Shown here: positions 1 to 44,134 of the stretch, one piece after another
How the letters are laid out: every line of letters begins with the position of its first letter
Position numbering within the stretch: position 1 is the stretch's first letter
Assembly (NCBI GenBank): GCA_965287045.1
Contig: OZ336882.1
Coordinates: forward strand, 65,100,001-65,164,000
DNA length: 64,000 nt
Source of the DNA: Carcharhinus amblyrhynchos
Lineage: Eukaryota
Direction: 5' to 3'
Program-made: the position numbers and the translations under genes
Notes under the pieces: generated by a model
The model's database searches: none
Seen by the model: only the letters and a program-made list of their open reading frames with translations
Told to the model about the DNA's origin: nothing

Positions 1-262
1 GAGGGTGCCAGTACTTCGACAGGGTCTGTAGGCCAAGTGGAACTTTCCACACAGTCTCTGTAAATGGCCAGTTAAGGTGAACTAACTGTACTTCAACTGG
101 CTACCTGCTCTTATGGGTAGGTAGCCTTCCACTAACCACTGGTAAATGGCTCAGGGAGGAGGCTGGATGATGCCAGCAAACTGTCATGCCAGCCAGCAAA
201 GTGACTTTTCACGCATTCCAATCTTAATGCTCCCCCCAGGAATGGGGGCAAAAATTCTGTCC
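1..262. mobile_element. End of an old non-autonomous DNA-transposon-like element (Harbinger/MITE-like)
   Basis: Ends in AAAATTCTGTCC, resembling the GGAAAAT..GCC terminal inverted repeat of the MITEs at 40999 and 61746; no coding capacity. Confidence 0.3.
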
Positions 263-3750: not shown

Positions 3751-3831
3751 AATCATAGAATCATAGAACCCTACAGTGCAGAAAGAGGCCCTTTGGCCCA
3801 TCGAGTCTGCGCCAAACACAATCTACCCAGG
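3751..3831 (-). mobile_element. HE1 SINE 3' tail fragment nested in the Penelope element
   Basis: ATCATAGAATCATAGAACCCTACAGTGCAGAAAGAGGCCCTTTGGCCCATC matches 26486-26526; it interrupts the PLE frame between PFVVQ and FPGAEKL. Confidence 0.85.
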
Positions 3832-4630
3832 AGCTTCCCCGGAGCGGAGAAGCTATGACATCTTCTCCGGAGTCTTCAACATATCATTGATGAAGACGAA
3901 CATCTCGCCAAGGCCATCCCCATACCCCCACTTCTTGCCTTCAAACAACCACACAACCTCAAACAGACCATTGTCCGCAGCAAACTACCCAGTCTTCAGG
4001 AGAACAATGACCACGACACCACACAACCTTGACACAGCAACCTCTGCTGGATCATCGACACAGATGCCATCATCTCATGTGAGAACACCATCCACCAGCT
4101 ACACAGAACATACACTTGCAACTCGGCTAACGTCTACTTGATACGCTGCAGGAAAGGATGTCCCGAGGCATGGTACATTGGGGAGACCGTGCAGACGCTA
4201 CGACAATGGATGAATGAAAACCGCTCAACAATCGCCAGGCAAGAGTGTTCTCTTCCTGTTGGGGAACACTTCAGCAGTCACGAGCATTCGGGTAAGCATA
4301 CTCCAAGGCGGCCTTCATGACACACGACAGCGCAGAGCTGCTAAGCAGAGACTGATAGCCAAATTCTGCACACATAAGGACGGCCTCAACCGGGATCTTG
4401 GGTTCATGTCACACCATCTGTAACCCTCACGACTTGCCTGGGCTTGCAAAATCTCACTAACTGTCCTGTCTGGAGACAATACACATCTCTTTAACCTGTG
4501 CTTAACCCTCTCTCCACTCAAATTATCTGTACCTTTAAGACTTGATTACCTGTAAAGACTCGCATTCTAATCATTATCTTGTAAATTGAGTTTGTACCTT
4601 TATATGCCCTGTTCGAGAACTGAAATCCCA

Positions 4631-4668
4631 CTCACCTGACGAAGGAGTAGCACTCCGAAAGTTAGTAG
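4631..4668 (+). ncRNA. Minimal type-I hammerhead ribozyme motif in the Penelope pLTR (probably damaged)
   Basis: CTCAC-CTGACGA-A-GGAGT/AGC/ACTCC-GAAA-GTTA-GTAG: core boxes and stem II intact. The AGCT palindrome and the stem I 3' strand each carry a substitution relative to sister copies. Confidence 0.75.
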
Positions 4669-5299
4669 CTTTTGCTACCAAATAAACTTGTTGGACTTTA
4701 ACCTGGTGTTGTGAGACTTCTTACCCAGTCAAAGAGGCCAACTGCAACATCACGACTGCCCCACATATTGAGATAAGCAAAGCTTGGGTCTAGGAGGATC
4801 CATGGTCTCACTTAGGTGTCAGGCAAGCTCCCAGTTAGCTCTTTATCATCACGAGTGTCACATTTTGGATAAACTGCATGCATCAAAGCTAAGGCTGTAG
4901 TTTAGGGACTGGGCAGCATTTGCTATCAAATTCTACAAATGTTTACAAAAGGTTTTAAATTCATTTTCAGGAGTAACTTTTAAAATATTCCAACATCCAT
5001 GCCAACTCCATTCAATGGGTATAAACTAACATCTTGAACTTTCTCCTGTGACAATCTCTGCAAAGAACACCATTTCTTCAATCTTTACCTCTTGACATGT
5101 CACTCTTAGAAGGAATTTACTAATTGAGTACAACCACTACACTCTGTCTCGTCAAGCTACAGTTGCTTCCAAAGCTTATAACTGTGGTGACACCAAATGG
5201 AGTTTTCAGAAGGAGACACAGTCTTGATCTTTTGAGAGATTTTCAGCTGTGGCCCCCATCAAGAATTATGAAAGTTACCCAACTGAGGCAAATGAGTTC

Positions 5300-7062: not shown

Positions 7063-9670
7063 TATCATTGCCAAACACAGTCATGTTCCAAACATACTAG
7101 ACTTCGAAGCAAAAGTGCAGGTTGATAATTTATGCTGTCACTCTGAGATGCTGAGATCAATCTAGCACTCCTGTCTCTGGTCAAACTAAGATCAGCTGGC
7201 CCAACACAGATTCGTGATATCTTGCTCTCTATCCCTCTTAGTGGTTTACTCACGGTGGGAGTTTTTTTTCTGACAACACAAGCTCATATCCTAGGTTGTT
7301 ACATAGGTCAGAATGTAAAGCAAGGTTTGCAATACAGATTGCCATCATGATGTCCCAGTAATGTAGTTTTAGGATAGATTTTGCACTTGCTCACTGAGCC
7401 TTCGTCCTATATTCCCACAAGAATCTCTCTCAAATTCTGTATGTGAATCTAAATACTGACACACTCTGTTAGATCTTCTGAATCCTACAGGTTACTGTGG
7501 TTTTGTCAGATCCCACAAGACATAACTTATAGAGAGACACACAAGATTTTCAAAGGTGCTGTTTTAACTCTTTAAGGGTAAAGTTGGGGATGTTAAGCAA
7601 GCCCCGAGATACCCCACAACCTCTGATATAAAATACCAGACTAATGTCACCCTCCTGTAAAACAGAAAGGATAAAGCAAACCCTTTCTGTTGTACATCCC
7701 TATAGCTATAACTATAGCTCTCTCAGATACTGTACCAAGATGCTTTTCTCTTTCTGTTAGAAAGGCCATCTCAGATGCTCTCTTTATCATGAGCATTCAT
7801 AACTAAATTAAGTTCCAGGGCAAATTTGAATAAATTTACTCCTCTATTACAGAATACAAAGAAAAATTATACCATTTAGCTGGTGAAGGGAGTAAGAGTT
7901 GGAGATATCGCGATGAAACTGTAGCACCAATTCTCCAATATTGTTTCTTTTTTCAAATCTCAAAGGAAATGCGCATTCAGTTTATCCACAGTCTGATAGA
8001 CAAATACATATCAGCCATTGGCAGGGAGCTACGATTAAATTCCATTATTAAGGTATATTTAACAAGTTGCTCAATTCCAGAAAGACAATGCAATACAAAC
8101 TTCCCTCATTATTCACCCATATTTATTCCATCACACAATGTGTTTACTTTTGATGGACCAATGCAGCAGCTGATTGGAAAAATGTGAGAGACCCATTCCC
8201 TGAACATCTTTGGTATTACCAACATCAGACATTAAACCTGCTTTCATGTACTTAGCCGAACCATCGCATGGGATCCAAAACAAACGTGCCATGCTTCATG
8301 GGGGGAGAATGGCCTGCTTTCTGCTGACTGCAGCCCATTCACATAAAATCTATTTTAGGACTTCAGGTCAACCCCTTTTAAGAACCTATATAATGCCAAA
8401 GTAAAAAGCCAATGTGCTCTTTTTTTGGAAGAGAGACTTTATCAAGGATTAATGCTTCACTCAGCAACCAAATAAAACACGATGATTTGTACAGTGTAGG
8501 CATCAATAAAATATACAGTAAAATTCCATAGACGCCTCTATTTTCCACATCTATCAGCTTATGCATTAAAATGCTTTGCAGGCTACTGCATTTAAGCAGA
8601 TTTCCACATTTACAATTTACTACTGAATCACTTTCCACCTAATAAACCAACTACACTCAAAGAAATAAACTTCAATTAAAACCACTCATTATATTTCTTA
8701 CCCTGACAAGATTAATGGCCAGAGTTTTATATGACTGTTGATACATTTATTGGAACTATTTTTCTAAGCTTAAAGACTGTCCGGATTCCACCTCAAGGCA
8801 GTGAGATCTGTTTCCATTATCAGTTGAGGGTTCTCCAGAGTGCTATTGATTGGGCTGTGATGGGACACTTCGAGGACAAGGCAAAACTAATTAAGCAGTG
8901 AGCACAAGGAATTGTACCTTCAATACTGTTTGAAGCTGCATTTAATTACTGCGTGGATAAAACAACATAGACCCCAGCATGCATTTGTTACGGTATAAAT
9001 GTACTACTCTGTAATATTGACTGGAAACCTACTGTTTGATCTAACATTGGGGACTGCTACCCTGAGGTGTCTGAAAAAAACAGAATGAAGTCGGCAGCAA
9101 TGAGCTGTGTGATGTTTGTGTTTGTATATGCACATCGGAAATTCAACAAAACACATCAAGCACAGCTCCAGACTTGGACTCCCGAGTAGGAGAATAAAGC
9201 AAGGCCACACCCCTGTATCACAGTTAAGTTAGATGTCTCCACAGAAGCTGTAGGTGCTTTGTTTGGGGTTCAGCAAGAGGTGGCTAACCCTGTGCAACTC
9301 ACCCAAAGCAGCAATGTCTCACATGGTCAGCCAGGGCAGCAGGCATCAAAGTGAGAATCAATCAAGGTAGTTGTGCAACAGTTAAGGCTTAGTTCACACC
9401 CACATGGTCTCACTGTCCATTGGCAGTATGTGTGCTCAACTGTAACGTCCCTGATGGATGGAGACTACCAAGTGAAACAATAGGCTACTGCAGTATTCCC
9501 ACATCAACCACCAGCCACCCAATCAAAGCAGTAACGGCAGGCTCACGGTTCTGTTAAAACACTTGCATACTCGTAGAAGCAGCAATATTCAGGAAAAGTG
9601 AATAGTACCCCCTTCCCCTTATTCGAAAATAGAATTCTGTCCTGTAACAGCAACCAGCCACTATGTGGAA

Positions 9671-10832
9671 TCTGTGATTCGGTGTGGGGTATCGGTGATT
9701 CGGTGTGGGGTATTGGTGATTCGACACCCTGCACCGAATCACTGACACCCCGCACCGAATCACTGATACCCTGCACCGAATCACCGATACCCCGCACCGA
9801 ATCACCGATACCCCGCACCGAATCACCGATACCCCGCACCGAATCACCGATACCACGCACCGAATCACCGATACCACGCACCGAATCACCGATACCCTGC
9901 ACCGAATCACCGATGCACCGCACCGAATCACCAATACCCTGCACCGAATCACCGATACCCTGCACCGAATCACCGATACCCCGCACCGAATCACCGATAC
10001 ACCGCACCGAAGTTGAGCGGGGTATCGGTGATTCGGTGCAGGGTATCGGTGATTCAGTGCGGGGTATCGGTGATTCAGTGCGGGGTATCGGTGATTCGGT
10101 GCGGCGAATCAGTGATTCGGTGCGGGGTATCGGTGATTCGGTGCAGGGTATCGGTGATTCGGTGCAGGGTATCGGTGATTCAGTGCAGGGTATCGGTCAT
10201 TCGGTGTGGGGTATCGGTGATTCGGTGCGGTGTATCGGTCATTTGGTGTGGTGTATCGGTGATTCGGTGCGGGGTATCGGTGATTCGGTGCGGGGTATCG
10301 GTGATTCGGTGCAGTGTATCGGTGATTCGGTGCGGGGTATCGGTGATTCGGTGCGGGGTATCGGTGATTCAGTGGGGGGTATCGGTGATTCGGTGCGGGG
10401 TGTCGGTGATTCAGTGCGGGGTATCGGTGATTCAGTGCGGGGTGTCGGTGATTCAGTGCGGGGTGTCGGTGATTCAGTGCAGGGTGTCGGTGATTCAGTG
10501 CGGGGTATCGGTGATTCATTGCAGGGTATCGGTGATTCAGTGCGGGGTATCGGTGATTCAGTGCAGGGTATCGGTGATTCAGTGCGGGGTATCGGTGATT
10601 CAGTGCGGGGTATCGGTGATTCATTGCAGGGTGTCGGTGATTCAGTGCAGGGTATCGGTGATTCAGTGCGGGGTATCGGTGATTCAGTCCAGGGTGTTGG
10701 TGATTCAGTGCGGGGTATCGGTGATTCAGGTGAGGTATCAGTGATTCAGGTGGGGTATCAGTGATTCAGTGTGGGCTATCGGTGATTCAGGTGGGGTATT
10801 CTCGATTCAATGTGGGGTATCAGTGATTCAGT
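9671..10832. repeat. 21-bp minisatellite (GGTATCGGTGATTCGGTGCGG)n, ~55 units, with inverted block 9722-10011
   Basis: About 2.5 forward units, ~14 reverse-complement units, a GTTGA linker, then ~39 forward units decaying at the 3' end. Confidence 0.97.
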
Positions 10833-34335: not shown

Positions 34336-35472
34336 AGAAAAATACTATTGCGACTCCCTCTTCATTCATCCAGTGATAATCTGCAGTCTTTGCCCCATGC
34401 AGGCACCCTTCTGCTGTTGCTGGCACTCTGGCAACTGCAGTGTAACTGTAGTGTAAACGGGAGCTGCAGTCTGAGGCAGCCCTGTCAAATGTGCTGGTGT
34501 TTTCATGTTGTTGACAAGCCACAGGGAAAACGAGAGTCAGACAGAGACCTATGGCCTACCAGCTCCATTCTCCCTGCATTTGCTTGCAGTGCACTGCTGG
34601 TGCCTATTAGGCCCATCAGAAGCCTGCATTTGGCTCCCGTGGCAGCAATTCAGATGGCAACTTCTTTGTGTGCCTTCAGTGATAGGATTTGCCGTGGTAA
34701 TAACTCAGTTAGTGCGTTATCACAATAAAACTACCATAAATTCAGCCGTCACAGAAGGCCTCAATCCTCAAGTTCTAACAGAATTCCCGAGGGCAGATAC
34801 AGTTTTCTGTTCTTTCTCGGAATACTGTGGATCCAGTGTGTTTCCCCTCTTGGCTGTCCAATTATTTAAAGTGCTTAATCTCCTTTGTGAGGTGTTTACA
34901 TAAATGTAGGTTTTCTCTAATGGATTAGCAGGCATGCTTCAGATGCTGCTTTCCTCGGGATATTCCCCAATTCCCACATGTTTCAGGAGGCCCTCCCGTG
35001 TAACCAGAGCCTTTGTCTCTGTTAATTAGGGACATTAAGCACTGCCTAATAAAGAAGATTCAAACTCCAATTCAGATGGAAAACAAAACTGAGAGGAAGC
35101 TTTGATGGGCTTTAACATTCCCCAGGATCTTCTGAACATCGCTGGGAACCTTCGCCTGATTGATCTAATGACCACTGTCCAGTAAGATCTGTACTCCATC
35201 AATGCCAGAGGGCTCCCTTAAGCTATCCTAACAATCAGTTCCAATATTAAATACACAGGGCAGTAACTAAATCAGCCTTGTGATGGATATGTATATTAAA
35301 AACCATGCCATGCCATCAGTGATATCACCCCATAAGGCTCTGGGATCACAGTGTTAGGAGACACAAGTGTCAGTCAGATTTGTGAGTTATTAAAAACAAA
35401 CTGGGCTCCTCCAGGGGACACAGACTGCAACGGTTCAAAAAGGCAGCTCAGCAGCACTTTCTCCATGGCAAA

Positions 35473-35549
35473 AGCGCTCTGAAAGCTAGTGGCGTTTGCT
35501 ACCAAATAAACCTGTTGGACTTTAACCTGGTCTTGTGAGACTTCTTACT
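35473..35549 (+). mobile_element. Penelope pLTR terminal fragment (3' half of hammerhead)
   Basis: AGCGCTCTGAAAGCTAGTGGCGTTTGCTACCAAATAAACCTGTTGGACTTTAACCTGG..GAGACTTCTTAC matches 4649-4724. Confidence 0.88.
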
Positions 35550-35663
35550 GAAATTCTGGTCCAGCCAGCGATGCCTGGACCCTGAATAAAGAACAGTTCA
35601 TTGCTTAGTCTGTTGTAGGGGTTGTGAAGGCACTGTGATTGTTGTGTCTGTGTGAGTCAGTCA

Positions 35664-35700
35664 TTCACCTGACGAAGGGACAAACCTGAAAGCTAGTGAG
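35664..35700 (+). ncRNA. Apparently intact minimal type-I hammerhead ribozyme
   Basis: TTCAC-CTGACGA-AGG/GACAAA/CCT-GAAA-GCTA^GTGAG: stem I TTCAC:GTGAG, stem II AGG:CCT, palindromic AGCT for stem III, predicted cleavage after CUA (35695). Confidence 0.75.
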
Positions 35701-35754
35701 TTTACTATCAAATAAATCGGTTGGACTTAAACCTGGTGTTGTCAGACTTTTTAC
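35664..35754 (+). mobile_element. 91-bp Penelope pLTR insertion (hammerhead + terminus) with 7-bp TSD
   Basis: Homologous to 4631-4724; TCAGTCA at 35657-35663 and 35755-35761. Confidence 0.85.
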
Positions 35755-36760
35755 TCAGTCAGCTGATCTCAACCCTGGGAGTAGCTGGAGCCGCGTGCTG
35801 GCCTGAGTGTTCCTGAGTTGGAGAGGAGGGGAATGAGTTGTGGGGTTAGAAGGGAATGGAAAGTGCACGACATGAAAAGGGTAAAACTGTCAGATTCTTC
35901 AAGGTTTGGTACCCAGTTTCGACCCATTATTCACCAAAAAGCAGTGATTCGAGGAGGAGGGGAGGGAACTCTCAGGAGAGAATTAATGGGGAAAAGTCTT
36001 CACAAAAATTCTTTTTTCCCCCAGGAGGGAGCAGTGGTCTGTACTATCATCATGGGAATGTCCCATGCAAATAAGGTGCTCGAACACAAATGTCATACTA
36101 AGTTGTTAAATGAGTAAAGAAAATGTTTTTTTCCCTAAGTAAAGACAGAGTTCTTTTAAAAGCAATAAGGCAACTTGAATGTTCAAACTTCAAGTAATAG
36201 GTATAAACTGACTGGAGTATTCAGCATCTCAGTCATGTTGCTATCTCCATTCCTTTGTAAGAATTTTATAGCACAGAGGTGCAGATGTCCAGGGATCCCT
36301 TTTCCTGCTGTACTGCACAGTTATCTGAGTTTCCAGACATGGGGCTGTGAATATCCCACTGGTTAAGGCCACTGGTTTTAGTAAAAAGAGGGAGCTAGTC
36401 CCACACCTTTCCACCTTGGGCCTCCCTGGCACAATGGTCATTGACTCCCCAGGTAGATGGTAAAAAGGGAGCAGCAAGTCATTCAACTGAATCAAAAAGT
36501 TCTGGTAAAGTGTAAAACCACACCACAACTCTGTAACCAAAGGCTCAGTCATGATATCCAAACACCAGTATCGATGCCAAGTGTTCTTTCTGTTCAATGC
36601 TGTGTTTGCTGGGATTGAGTTGGAGGTTCAGCATCACTAACACCGCTTTCACTTTTCAGGTGAGAACACTTCCCACACTCAGAGAATGTGGAACTTGGCA
36701 CTGGCCACAATACTGATTTTACCTATAACTAGTCTGTCTGGTTTTGGACTTGGCGGTGTT

Positions 36761-36844: not shown

Positions 36845-39055
36845 TGTTCTCTCTGCTCTAAATCAGAAAGTCGCAGCTTCAAGTCCCATTCCAGACCCTC
36901 AACCACGTCACTCTAGATTGCATTCAGCACAATACTGAGGGAGTGCTGCATTATCAGAGGTCTGTCATATAAGATGTTAAATCAAGGTCCTGTAAGCCCC
37001 TTAGAACATAGAACACTGCAGCACAAACAGGCCTTCGGCCCACAAGTTGCGCCAATCACATCTATACCTACCAAGCCATCTGTAACTTTCAATGCCATTA
37101 GATCCCATATACTCATCCAGAAGTCTTTTAAAAGACCCCAGCGAGTTCGCCTCTATCACCACCAACGGCAGCCGATTCCACTCACTCACTACCCTCGAGT
37201 GAAAAATTTTCCCCTAACACCTCCTCTGTACTTGCTTCCCAGCACCTTAAACCTCTGTCCTCTCGTAGCGACCATTTCAGCCCTGGGAAATAGCCTCCAA
37301 GAATCCACCCTATCTATTCCTCTCAACATTTTATAAACCTCTATCAGGTCGCCTCTCAACCTAGCTCCCTCAACCTATCTTCATAAGGCATGCCTCCCAA
37401 TCCAGGCAACATCCTTGTAAATCTCCTCTGCACCCTCTCATTAGCTTCCACATCCTTCCTGTAGTGAGGTGACCAGAACTGTGCACAGTACTCCGGGTCT
37501 GACAAGTGTCCTATAAAGTTGCAGCATTACCTCCTGACTCCTAAACTCAATCCCTCAATTAATGAAGGCCAGTACACCATACGCCTTTTTGACCACATCC
37601 TCCACCTGTGAGGCCGATTTAAGAGTCCTATGGACCCGGACCCCAAGATCCTTCTGCTCTTCAACCCAGCTAAGACTCCTACCCTTGATATTGTACTCCT
37701 GCATCCTGTTGGTCCTGCCAAAATGGACCACTACATATTTATCTGCGTTGAAGTCCATCTGCCACTTCTCCGCCCAGTCTTGCATCCTATCTATGTCATG
37801 CTGCAACTTCTGACATCCCTCCAGACTACCCACAACACCACCAACCTTCGTATCGTCGGCGAACTTACTAACCCATCCCTCCACTTCCTCATCCAGGTCA
37901 TTTATGAAAATGACAAACAGCAAGGGTCCTAGAACAGATCCCTGGGGCACTCCACTGGTGACAGACCTCCATGCAGGAAAAGACCCATCCACAACCACTC
38001 TCTGCCTTCTGCAGGCAAGCCAGTTCTGGATCCACAAGGCCAAAGCCCCTTGGATCCCATGCCCTCTCACCTTCTCAAGAAGTCTTGCATGGGGGACCTT
38101 ATCAAACGCCTTGCTGAAGTCCATGTAAACCACGTCCACCGCTCTTCCTTCGTCAATGTGTTCAGTCACATTTTCAAAGAACTCAACTCGGCTTGTAAGG
38201 CACAACCTGCCCTTGACAAAGTGTGCTGACTATTCCTGATCATTCTAAACTTCTCTAAATGCTCATAAATCTTGTCCCTCAGAATCCTCTCCATCAACTT
38301 ACCAACCACTGAGGTCAGACTCACCGGTCGGTAATTTCCCAGGCTATCCCTGTTCCCTTTCTTGAAAATAGGAACCACATCCGCAATCCTCCAATCCTTT
38401 GGAACCTCTCCCATCTCCATCGACGATGCAAAGGTCATCGCCAGGGGCTCTGCAATCACTTCCCTCACCTCCCACAATAACCTGGGGTACATCCCATCTG
38501 GTCCCGGCGACTTATCTATCTTGATAGAGTTTAAAAGTTCCAACACATCCTCTTTCTTAATATCCACATACTCAATCTTTTCAGTCTGCCGCAAACCTGT
38601 AGTACAACCTCCCAGATCACTTTCCACCGTGAATACCGAGGCAAAGTACTCATTAAGCACCTCTGCCATGTCTTCCGGTTCCACACAGACTTTTCCCCCT
38701 TCACCTTTTATAGGTCCTATCCCTTCTTTTCTCATCCTTTTACTCTTCACATATTTGTAGAACACCTTGGGATCCTCTTTAATTTTACCCGCCAAGGCCT
38801 TAGTTGTACGTTAAGCTCCCAAAGCTCAATTGGAAGAGTAGGGGTGTTCTCCTTCATCTCCTGGCTAATTGAGATTCCTTAACCAACTCACTCAGATTAT
38901 CAGGTCATTGTCACATTGCTGTGACCTTATTGTGCACAAATTGGCTGTAATATTTACCGAAACATCAGTAACCACACCTCCAAAATACTTAATTAACTGA
39001 CAAGCACTTTGAGACATGCTGAGGATGAGAAAGTAGCTATATAAAGGCACTTTTT
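36845..39055 (+). mobile_element. DeuSINE/SacSINE1-like SINE (36845-37004 + 38804-39055) split by a CR1 insertion
   Basis: Head TCAAGTCCCATTCCAGA..ATACTGAGGGAGTGCTGCA..AGATGTTAAA lies before the CR1; CACAAATTGGCTG..AATACTTAATT..GCTATATAAA lies after it. Confidence 0.7.
37002..38800 (-). mobile_element. 5'-truncated CR1 (HER1-like) LINE, ORF2 reverse transcriptase with frameshifts
   Basis: ORFs 38166-38795 and 37555-38205: KSPGPDG, NYRPVSLTSVVGK, DFSKAFDKVPH, GVPQGSVLGPLLF, FADDTK, KDLGV. The C-terminal WNRLP..SFKRLLD and a (TGTTCTA)n tail follow. Possible TSD CCTTAG at 36999-37004 and 38798-38803. Confidence 0.97.
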
Positions 39056-43973: not shown

Positions 43974-44134
43974 TGATGTGGAGATGCCGGCGTTGGACTG
44001 GGATAAACACACTAAGAAGTCTCACAACACCAGGTTAAAGCCCAACAGGTTTACTTGGTAGCAAAAGCCACCAGCTTTCGGAGCGCTTGCTCCGTCAGGT
44101 TGGACTTTAACCTGGTGTTGTGAGACTTCTTACT
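43974..44134. mobile_element. Inverted pair of Penelope pLTR termini
   Basis: 44013-44046 and 44099-44132 form a 34-bp inverted repeat with 1 mismatch. The minus-strand copy carries a hammerhead with a core deletion plus ~38 nt of extra 3' tail (43974-44011). Confidence 0.88.

Follow-up and report, generated by a model that had tools for sequence, protein, structure and literature searches.

A tail-less Penelope-like element end with a minimal hammerhead motif in Carcharhinus amblyrhynchos, probably copied from uncut RNA and predicted to be inactive

The window analysed here, a 64,000-nt stretch of contig OZ336882.1 from Carcharhinus amblyrhynchos, contained a short, 5'-truncated and tail-less copy of the pLTR of a Penelope-like element (PLE), which was very probably made by the reverse transcriptase (RT) and GIY-YIG enzyme of the element from uncut RNA, and whose hammerhead is predicted to lack activity (Table 1). 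The locus has many thousands of counterparts among dead Penelope ends, and its type of hammerhead has already been published, minimal type-I hammerheads in the pLTRs of metazoan PLEs having been described by Cervera and de la Pena 2014 (PMC4209133). A preliminary description of the sequence had recognized, on the Penelope pLTR end, a minimal hammerhead of type I, with all core nucleotides present and belonging to the dimer type known from the literature, and both points were confirmed, the motif lying on the sense strand of the element. The CUGANGA and GAAA boxes were accompanied by stems I and II, an extra nucleotide (A35676) separated positions 9 and 10.1, and positions 15.2-16.2 were palindromic (AGCT). 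The register of stem II required correction, with the unpaired A followed by G10.1-C11.1 in the family; the window copy had G10.1-U11.1 instead, likely a product of CpG decay. An Rfam scan of the whole window returned no hammerhead family at E ≤ 10, as expected of a minimal motif without helix III. In its core, its additional nucleotide separating 9 from 10.1, its G10.1-C11.1 pair (in the family) and its palindromic 15.2-16.2, as well as in a highly variable stem II and an occurrence mostly as single dispersed motifs of truncated elements, the motif resembled the hammerheads described in PMC4209133, from which the window copy departed by its G-U closing pair. Helix II had 3-5 bp, compared to the 7-8 bp given for Schistosoma.

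Table 1. Features of the Penelope-like insert and its surroundings (window positions)
Feature	Position	Strand	Remarks
Older Penelope family stub, 3' half of hammerhead only	35471..35550	+	independent insertion
Left target-site duplication AGTCAG	35655..35660	+	from empty site; alternative is TCAGTCA, 35657-63
One extra letter flanking each end of the 94-nt match	35661, 35756	+	
3' end of pLTR, young Penelope-like family, without ~37-nt tail, 94 nt	35662..35755	+	
Stem I, 5' strand ATTCAC	35663..35668	+	pairs with 35696-35701
Core CTGACGA (C3-U4-G5-A6-C7-G8-A9)	35669-35675	+	
Extra unpaired A	35676	+	typical of PLE hammerheads
Stem II GGG/CCU, loop ACAAA	35677..35687	+	closing pair G-U, G-C in family
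GAAA box (G12-A13-A14-A15.1)	35688-35691	+	
Palindromic AGCT (AGCU in RNA)	35691-35694	+	monomer without helix III
A17 (A35695), predicted cut 3' of 35695	within 35688..35695	+	from sequence and PMC4209133
Stem I, 3' strand GTGAGT, then pLTR end	35696..35701	+	
GUCAG, predicted partner of core CUGAC in tail-less RNA	35741..35745	+	predicted to block hammerhead fold
Right target-site duplication AGTCAG	35757..35762	+	from empty site

A TCAGTCA direct repeat could be read directly from the sequence at 35657-35663 and 35755-35761, with 91 nt in between, and the preliminary description had taken this as a stand-alone 91-nt insertion starting exactly at the first base of stem I. The orthologous site was without insert on contigs bridging it in organisms C and D, which have many substitutions in common and may amount to one witness; against these empty sites 102 nt were skipped, of which six letters (AGTCAG) fit either side. 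Provided that the outgroups show the ancestral state, the simplest reading of the alignment would be an insert of 96 nt with a 6-nt duplication, AGTCAG, as the 91 + 7 version would require an additional 4-nt change in one lineage. Junctions in the family read CCA/TTCAC and TTTTAC/TG (slash marking the boundary), so that 35662-35755 (94 nt) represents the part that matches the element exactly. The stand-alone insertion with a direct repeat is thus real, its size would be better given as 96 + 6, and its start would lie 1-3 nt before stem I, as the empty sites suggest. Organism A, with a flank about 3% different, appears to share the insert, as suggested by a contig that enters it by 23 nt, under our 31-nt rule. 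Chance can be set aside as the origin of the insertion, since near-identical copies were found genome-wide (8,857 exact matches to a 30-mer of the insert, against 0 for a reversed-pattern control) and the orthologous sites were empty.

Among the 29 best-matching other copies, 21 extended at least 18 nt upstream as family sequence and three matched the insert without a difference over 91-92 nt, one of these belonging to the 21; none of the 29 stood alone without a tail and with its start at stem I. As longer copies have the same stem II letters, the stem II of the insert is a variant of the family and not, as had been proposed, a sequence of its own. Upstream of the pLTR, long copies reached a same-strand frame with matches to RVT_1 (E 8e-6) and GIY-YIG (E 1.6e-4), each falling slightly short of the Pfam cut-offs. 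At locus L108 a 413-aa open frame with RT plus GIY-YIG at its C-terminal end stood upstream of the pLTR, and its C-x4-C-xx-C linker (CHSNLCKTC) fits the CX2-5CxxC motif between RT and EN. Judged by these sequence features the parent is an EN+ Penelope-like element, putatively of Neptune type by its linker motif rather than by a tree; the motif also occurs in Nematis and Naiad (PMC8557442). The family had two 3' ends, one at TTAC(T), as at the locus, and one about 37 nt further on, matching the two RT start sites that an anole element uses in vitro (PMC11167929). Many copies were fold-back pairs with one arm tailed, and an optional 30-40 nt tail, an inverted 5'-truncated arm and a short target duplication were all found in the family, the tail and fold-back features being already published (PMC8557442; PMC3846280). 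With a parent that has RT, CxxC linker and C-terminal GIY-YIG, and with 3' ends some 37 nt apart, fold-backs with one tailed arm and short duplications, the family showed no essential difference from Neptune-type EN+ PLEs as these are portrayed in PMC8557442, PMC3846280 and PMC11167929, and the window copy would represent their shortest product class. A protein search of phage records gave no match.

Stem II was compared in 215 copies from loci picked independently of similarity to the insert, and 69 variants were found. Pair 10.2-11.2 was G-C in 109 copies, A-U in 89, G-U in 11 and mismatched in six, pair 10.1-11.1 was G-C in 197 and G-U in 18, and the extra unpaired A between 9 and 10.1 was present in 156/159 copies. 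These compensatory changes in stem II indicate selection on the hammerhead fold in source elements, in a sample of related copies that are not independent events. We also observed that the arms of one insertion differed in stem II or loop II in the fold-back pairs L076/L121, L127 and L139.

We evaluated where the 5' ends of the family fall relative to stem I. The first 100 places listed on contig C1 supplied 99 distinct copies, whose ends spanned -41 to beyond +218, eight of them at 0..+2, and the end rate was 2.3 per 100 copy-nt at 0..+11, compared to 0.5 further upstream and 0.8-1.5 downstream. Genome-wide junction patterns, in which three mismatches were demanded just past the junction, gave all-copy counts of 906 (0..2), 620 (3..5), 553 (6..8) and 925 (9..11), then 310 (12..14) and 398 (18..20), the last including a deletion variant that made up about 38/100 of the matches listed. 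There is a zone of raised 5' ends just upstream of stem I, and truncation is not uniform. Fold-backs accounted for 43/50 loci at 0..2, 33/40 at 3..5, 31/40 at 6..8 and 22/30 at 9..11, and for 6/10 each at 12..14 and 18..20, where deletion variants and duplicates among the matches listed were skipped. Stand-alone loci numbered 5/50, 2/40, 8/40 and 6/30 across the same four intervals and 4/10 in each of the two outer ones; the remaining 2/50 loci at 0..+2 belonged to another subfamily. Scaled to the counts, stand-alone copies were roughly estimated at 484, 125, 481 and 685 per 3-nt interval over 0..+11 and at about 400-500 at both +12..14 and +18..20 (from the 4/10 loci each), estimates that rest on 2-8 loci per interval with the inverted arm called at an 18-nt threshold, so that some "stand-alone" calls conceal inverted pieces shorter than 18 nt. 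This curve was flat (Fisher p=0.61, 0..+2 against the next three intervals), and the five stand-alone copies at 0..+2 had five different stem II sequences. The pile-up of 5' ends at stem I envisaged in the preliminary description was thereby borne out for all copies, as an enrichment 0-11 nt upstream made up mostly of fold-back junctions, and absent from the stand-alone ones.

Had the ribozyme cut the template, copies would start at 35696; an accumulation of 5' ends there, hinted at by the 99-copy sample, was not borne out genome-wide, with no excess in the counts: the cut-site interval counted 178 and its neighbours 260 and 67, with 57/100 of the matches listed for the 260 being one 2-nt deletion variant. 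Cut RNA is therefore not a main template, consistent with what is reported in PMC11167929. Insertions of 1 nt were seen at the cut site in about 4/30 loci, and the 2-nt deletion was common there; such indels may reflect either slippage or the trace of cut-and-rejoined RNA. As for the fold-backs, their junctions clustered 0-11 nt upstream of stem I (loci L117-L146 and L178-L307), with a recurrent +10/0 joint formed via a GAA..TTC hairpin and with short templated terminal repeats. An untemplated, cap-derived G at the 5' joint was considered and rejected, as either the inverted arm or the target duplication supplies the Gs.

In the account that we favour for the window copy, an element enzyme would have nicked the target and reverse transcription would have been primed there, from the inner of two start sites, as the anole data (PMC11167929) and the two 3' ends of the family suggest. 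The RT would have read through the intact cut site, both sides of which are present in the sequence, and would have stopped early, 1-3 nt past stem I, after which the cDNA was presumably end-joined to the target, leaving the 6-7 nt duplication that is seen. At the locus the hammerhead would since have lost its closing G-C pair, and it would lack both a partner and the fold-favouring tail. An alternative that we regard as unlikely, but worth weighing, has the same enzyme and dead end with a fixed instead of a random stop: the RNA would begin some 10-11 nt before stem I, the RT would start at the internal site close to this 5' end and run off, and the insert would then be trimmed by about 9 nt. 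The three-fold drop in counts from +9..11 (925) to +12..14 (310) fits such a run-off, as do the short templated repeats at fold-back joints, the partner arms of fold-backs, which ended at +6..+11 in 29/99 (mostly +10/+11), and an intron predicted (see below) 44 nt after +11, similar to that of Drosophila virilis Penelope, which has 75 nt and lies 46 nt after the start site (PMC2377424). However, the step was seen in fold-backs, stand-alone copies being about equally frequent beyond +11, and 16/100 of the junctions listed are explained simply by the GAA..TTC hairpin that joins +10 to 0.

ViennaRNA predictions, which omit tertiary contacts and protein help, put the probability of stem I at under 0.01 for the 91-mer as well as within contexts of +/-25..200 nt, at 0.03 when the repeats were included, and at 0.90 for a natural copy that is identical but has the tail. 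The tail improved the predicted fold in 26/26 intact family copies (median from 0.04 to 0.89), and a shuffled tail reached 0.43, or half of this effect. We consider it very unlikely that host transcripts cleave themselves at the locus, whether through this copy alone, as a trans dimer or in cis together with the older stub that lies 180 nt upstream. The full set of core nucleotides speaks for activity, stems I and II are predicted to form in the isolated 46-nt motif, and trans partners could come from thousands of family copies; against it stand the G10.1-U11.1 closing pair, a core predicted to be sequestered, and the energy of a double-hammerhead skeleton of the 40-mer (-9.7 vs -17.2 kcal/mol for two monomers). 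A cis hybrid with the older upstream stub was rejected at a predicted cost of +16 kcal/mol, and no complete second motif that might act as dimer partner was found near the locus. Single minimal PLE hammerheads did not cleave in vitro, and such motifs are described as having low or no activity (PMC4209133), while the anole PLE hammerhead cut only with its protein added (PMC11167929). The hammerhead at the locus is thus predicted to be inactive, and the self-cleaving unit suggested in the preliminary description found no support, its tail-less RNA being predicted to misfold with no dimer partner at hand.

Very improbable is a "ribozyme SINE" or retrozyme monomer, in which Penelope enzymes would copy a 91-nt unit that is itself the transcript, an idea which the whole motif inside a stand-alone insert with target duplication, the raised 5'-end counts near stem I and the derivation of vertebrate retrozymes from pLTRs, with monomers among them (bioRxiv 2026.07.22.740005), could recommend, but which is largely refuted because stand-alone 5' ends did not pile up at a common junction at stem I and their stem II variants differed. 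Dispersed copies agreeing in one 5' end and in diagnostic bases were not found among those compared, nor were a tandem unit or a promoter of its own identified, and a monomer running from cut to cut would start at 35696, not at stem I. Animal non-LTR retrozymes, as described in PMC7229834 and bioRxiv 10.64898/2026.07.22.740005, likewise have a type-I hammerhead, are non-coding and are related to pLTRs, but they consist of tandem units with a hammerhead in each and give cut-to-cut circles, whereas the window copy is a single truncated end; the upstream stub belongs to a different family and is missing the 5' half.

The cut site directly preceded GTGAGT (or GCGAGT), a consensus 5' splice site, for example at 35696 of the window and at loci L002 and L108, and 73 nt past the cut site stood TTTACCCCAG, 23 nt before an ATG. 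Of 112 tailed copies, 107 kept the 73-nt spacing and 76 had GTGAGT. We predict a 73-nt 5'-UTR intron in the parent element, with the cut site as its donor; the acceptor falls in the tail and is absent from the window copy. The donor match may be partly a by-product, since stem I also requires GTG. A junction probe for spliced genomic copies returned two matches, neither in element context, which we ascribe to chance. PLEs retain introns, so the absence of spliced copies argues neither for nor against splicing. The tail-less 3' end was seen to fall directly after a branch-point-like YTTAC. In D. virilis the end of the intron is described as lying where helix I has its 5' end, whereas here the cut site and the predicted donor coincide. 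No published description of this coincidence was found in titles and abstract openings, and the supplementary alignment of PMC4209133 may show it. A rather improbable extension is that hammerhead, 5'-UTR intron and tail form one switch, with splicing, self-cleavage and RT templating mutually exclusive; such a switch would set the fate of a transcript, be it translation, destruction or copying, and the ribozyme would fold only in tailed RNA. The function of PLE hammerheads is called unclear in PMC8557442, and the family offers a natural data set on their role, with copies from uncut RNA, no cut-site excess and compensatory upkeep of stem II. The coincidence of cut site and predicted donor bears on a possible link between ribozyme and intron.

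Elsewhere in the window, no host exon was identified by eye in the list of open reading frames. The older stub at 35471-35550 was also absent in organism C. The older Penelope family to which it belongs was further represented at 3819-4724, by an ORF 3' end and a complete minimal hammerhead (4629-4670), and at 43975-44134, by a small fold-back. An array of about 50 copies of a 21-nt unit occupied 9659-10780, with an orientation switch near 10010, broken LINE (CR1/L2-like) reverse transcriptase frames lay on the minus strand at 37555-38810, and tRNA-derived SINE copies were present, e.g. at 1640, 27340, 43385 and 49538.
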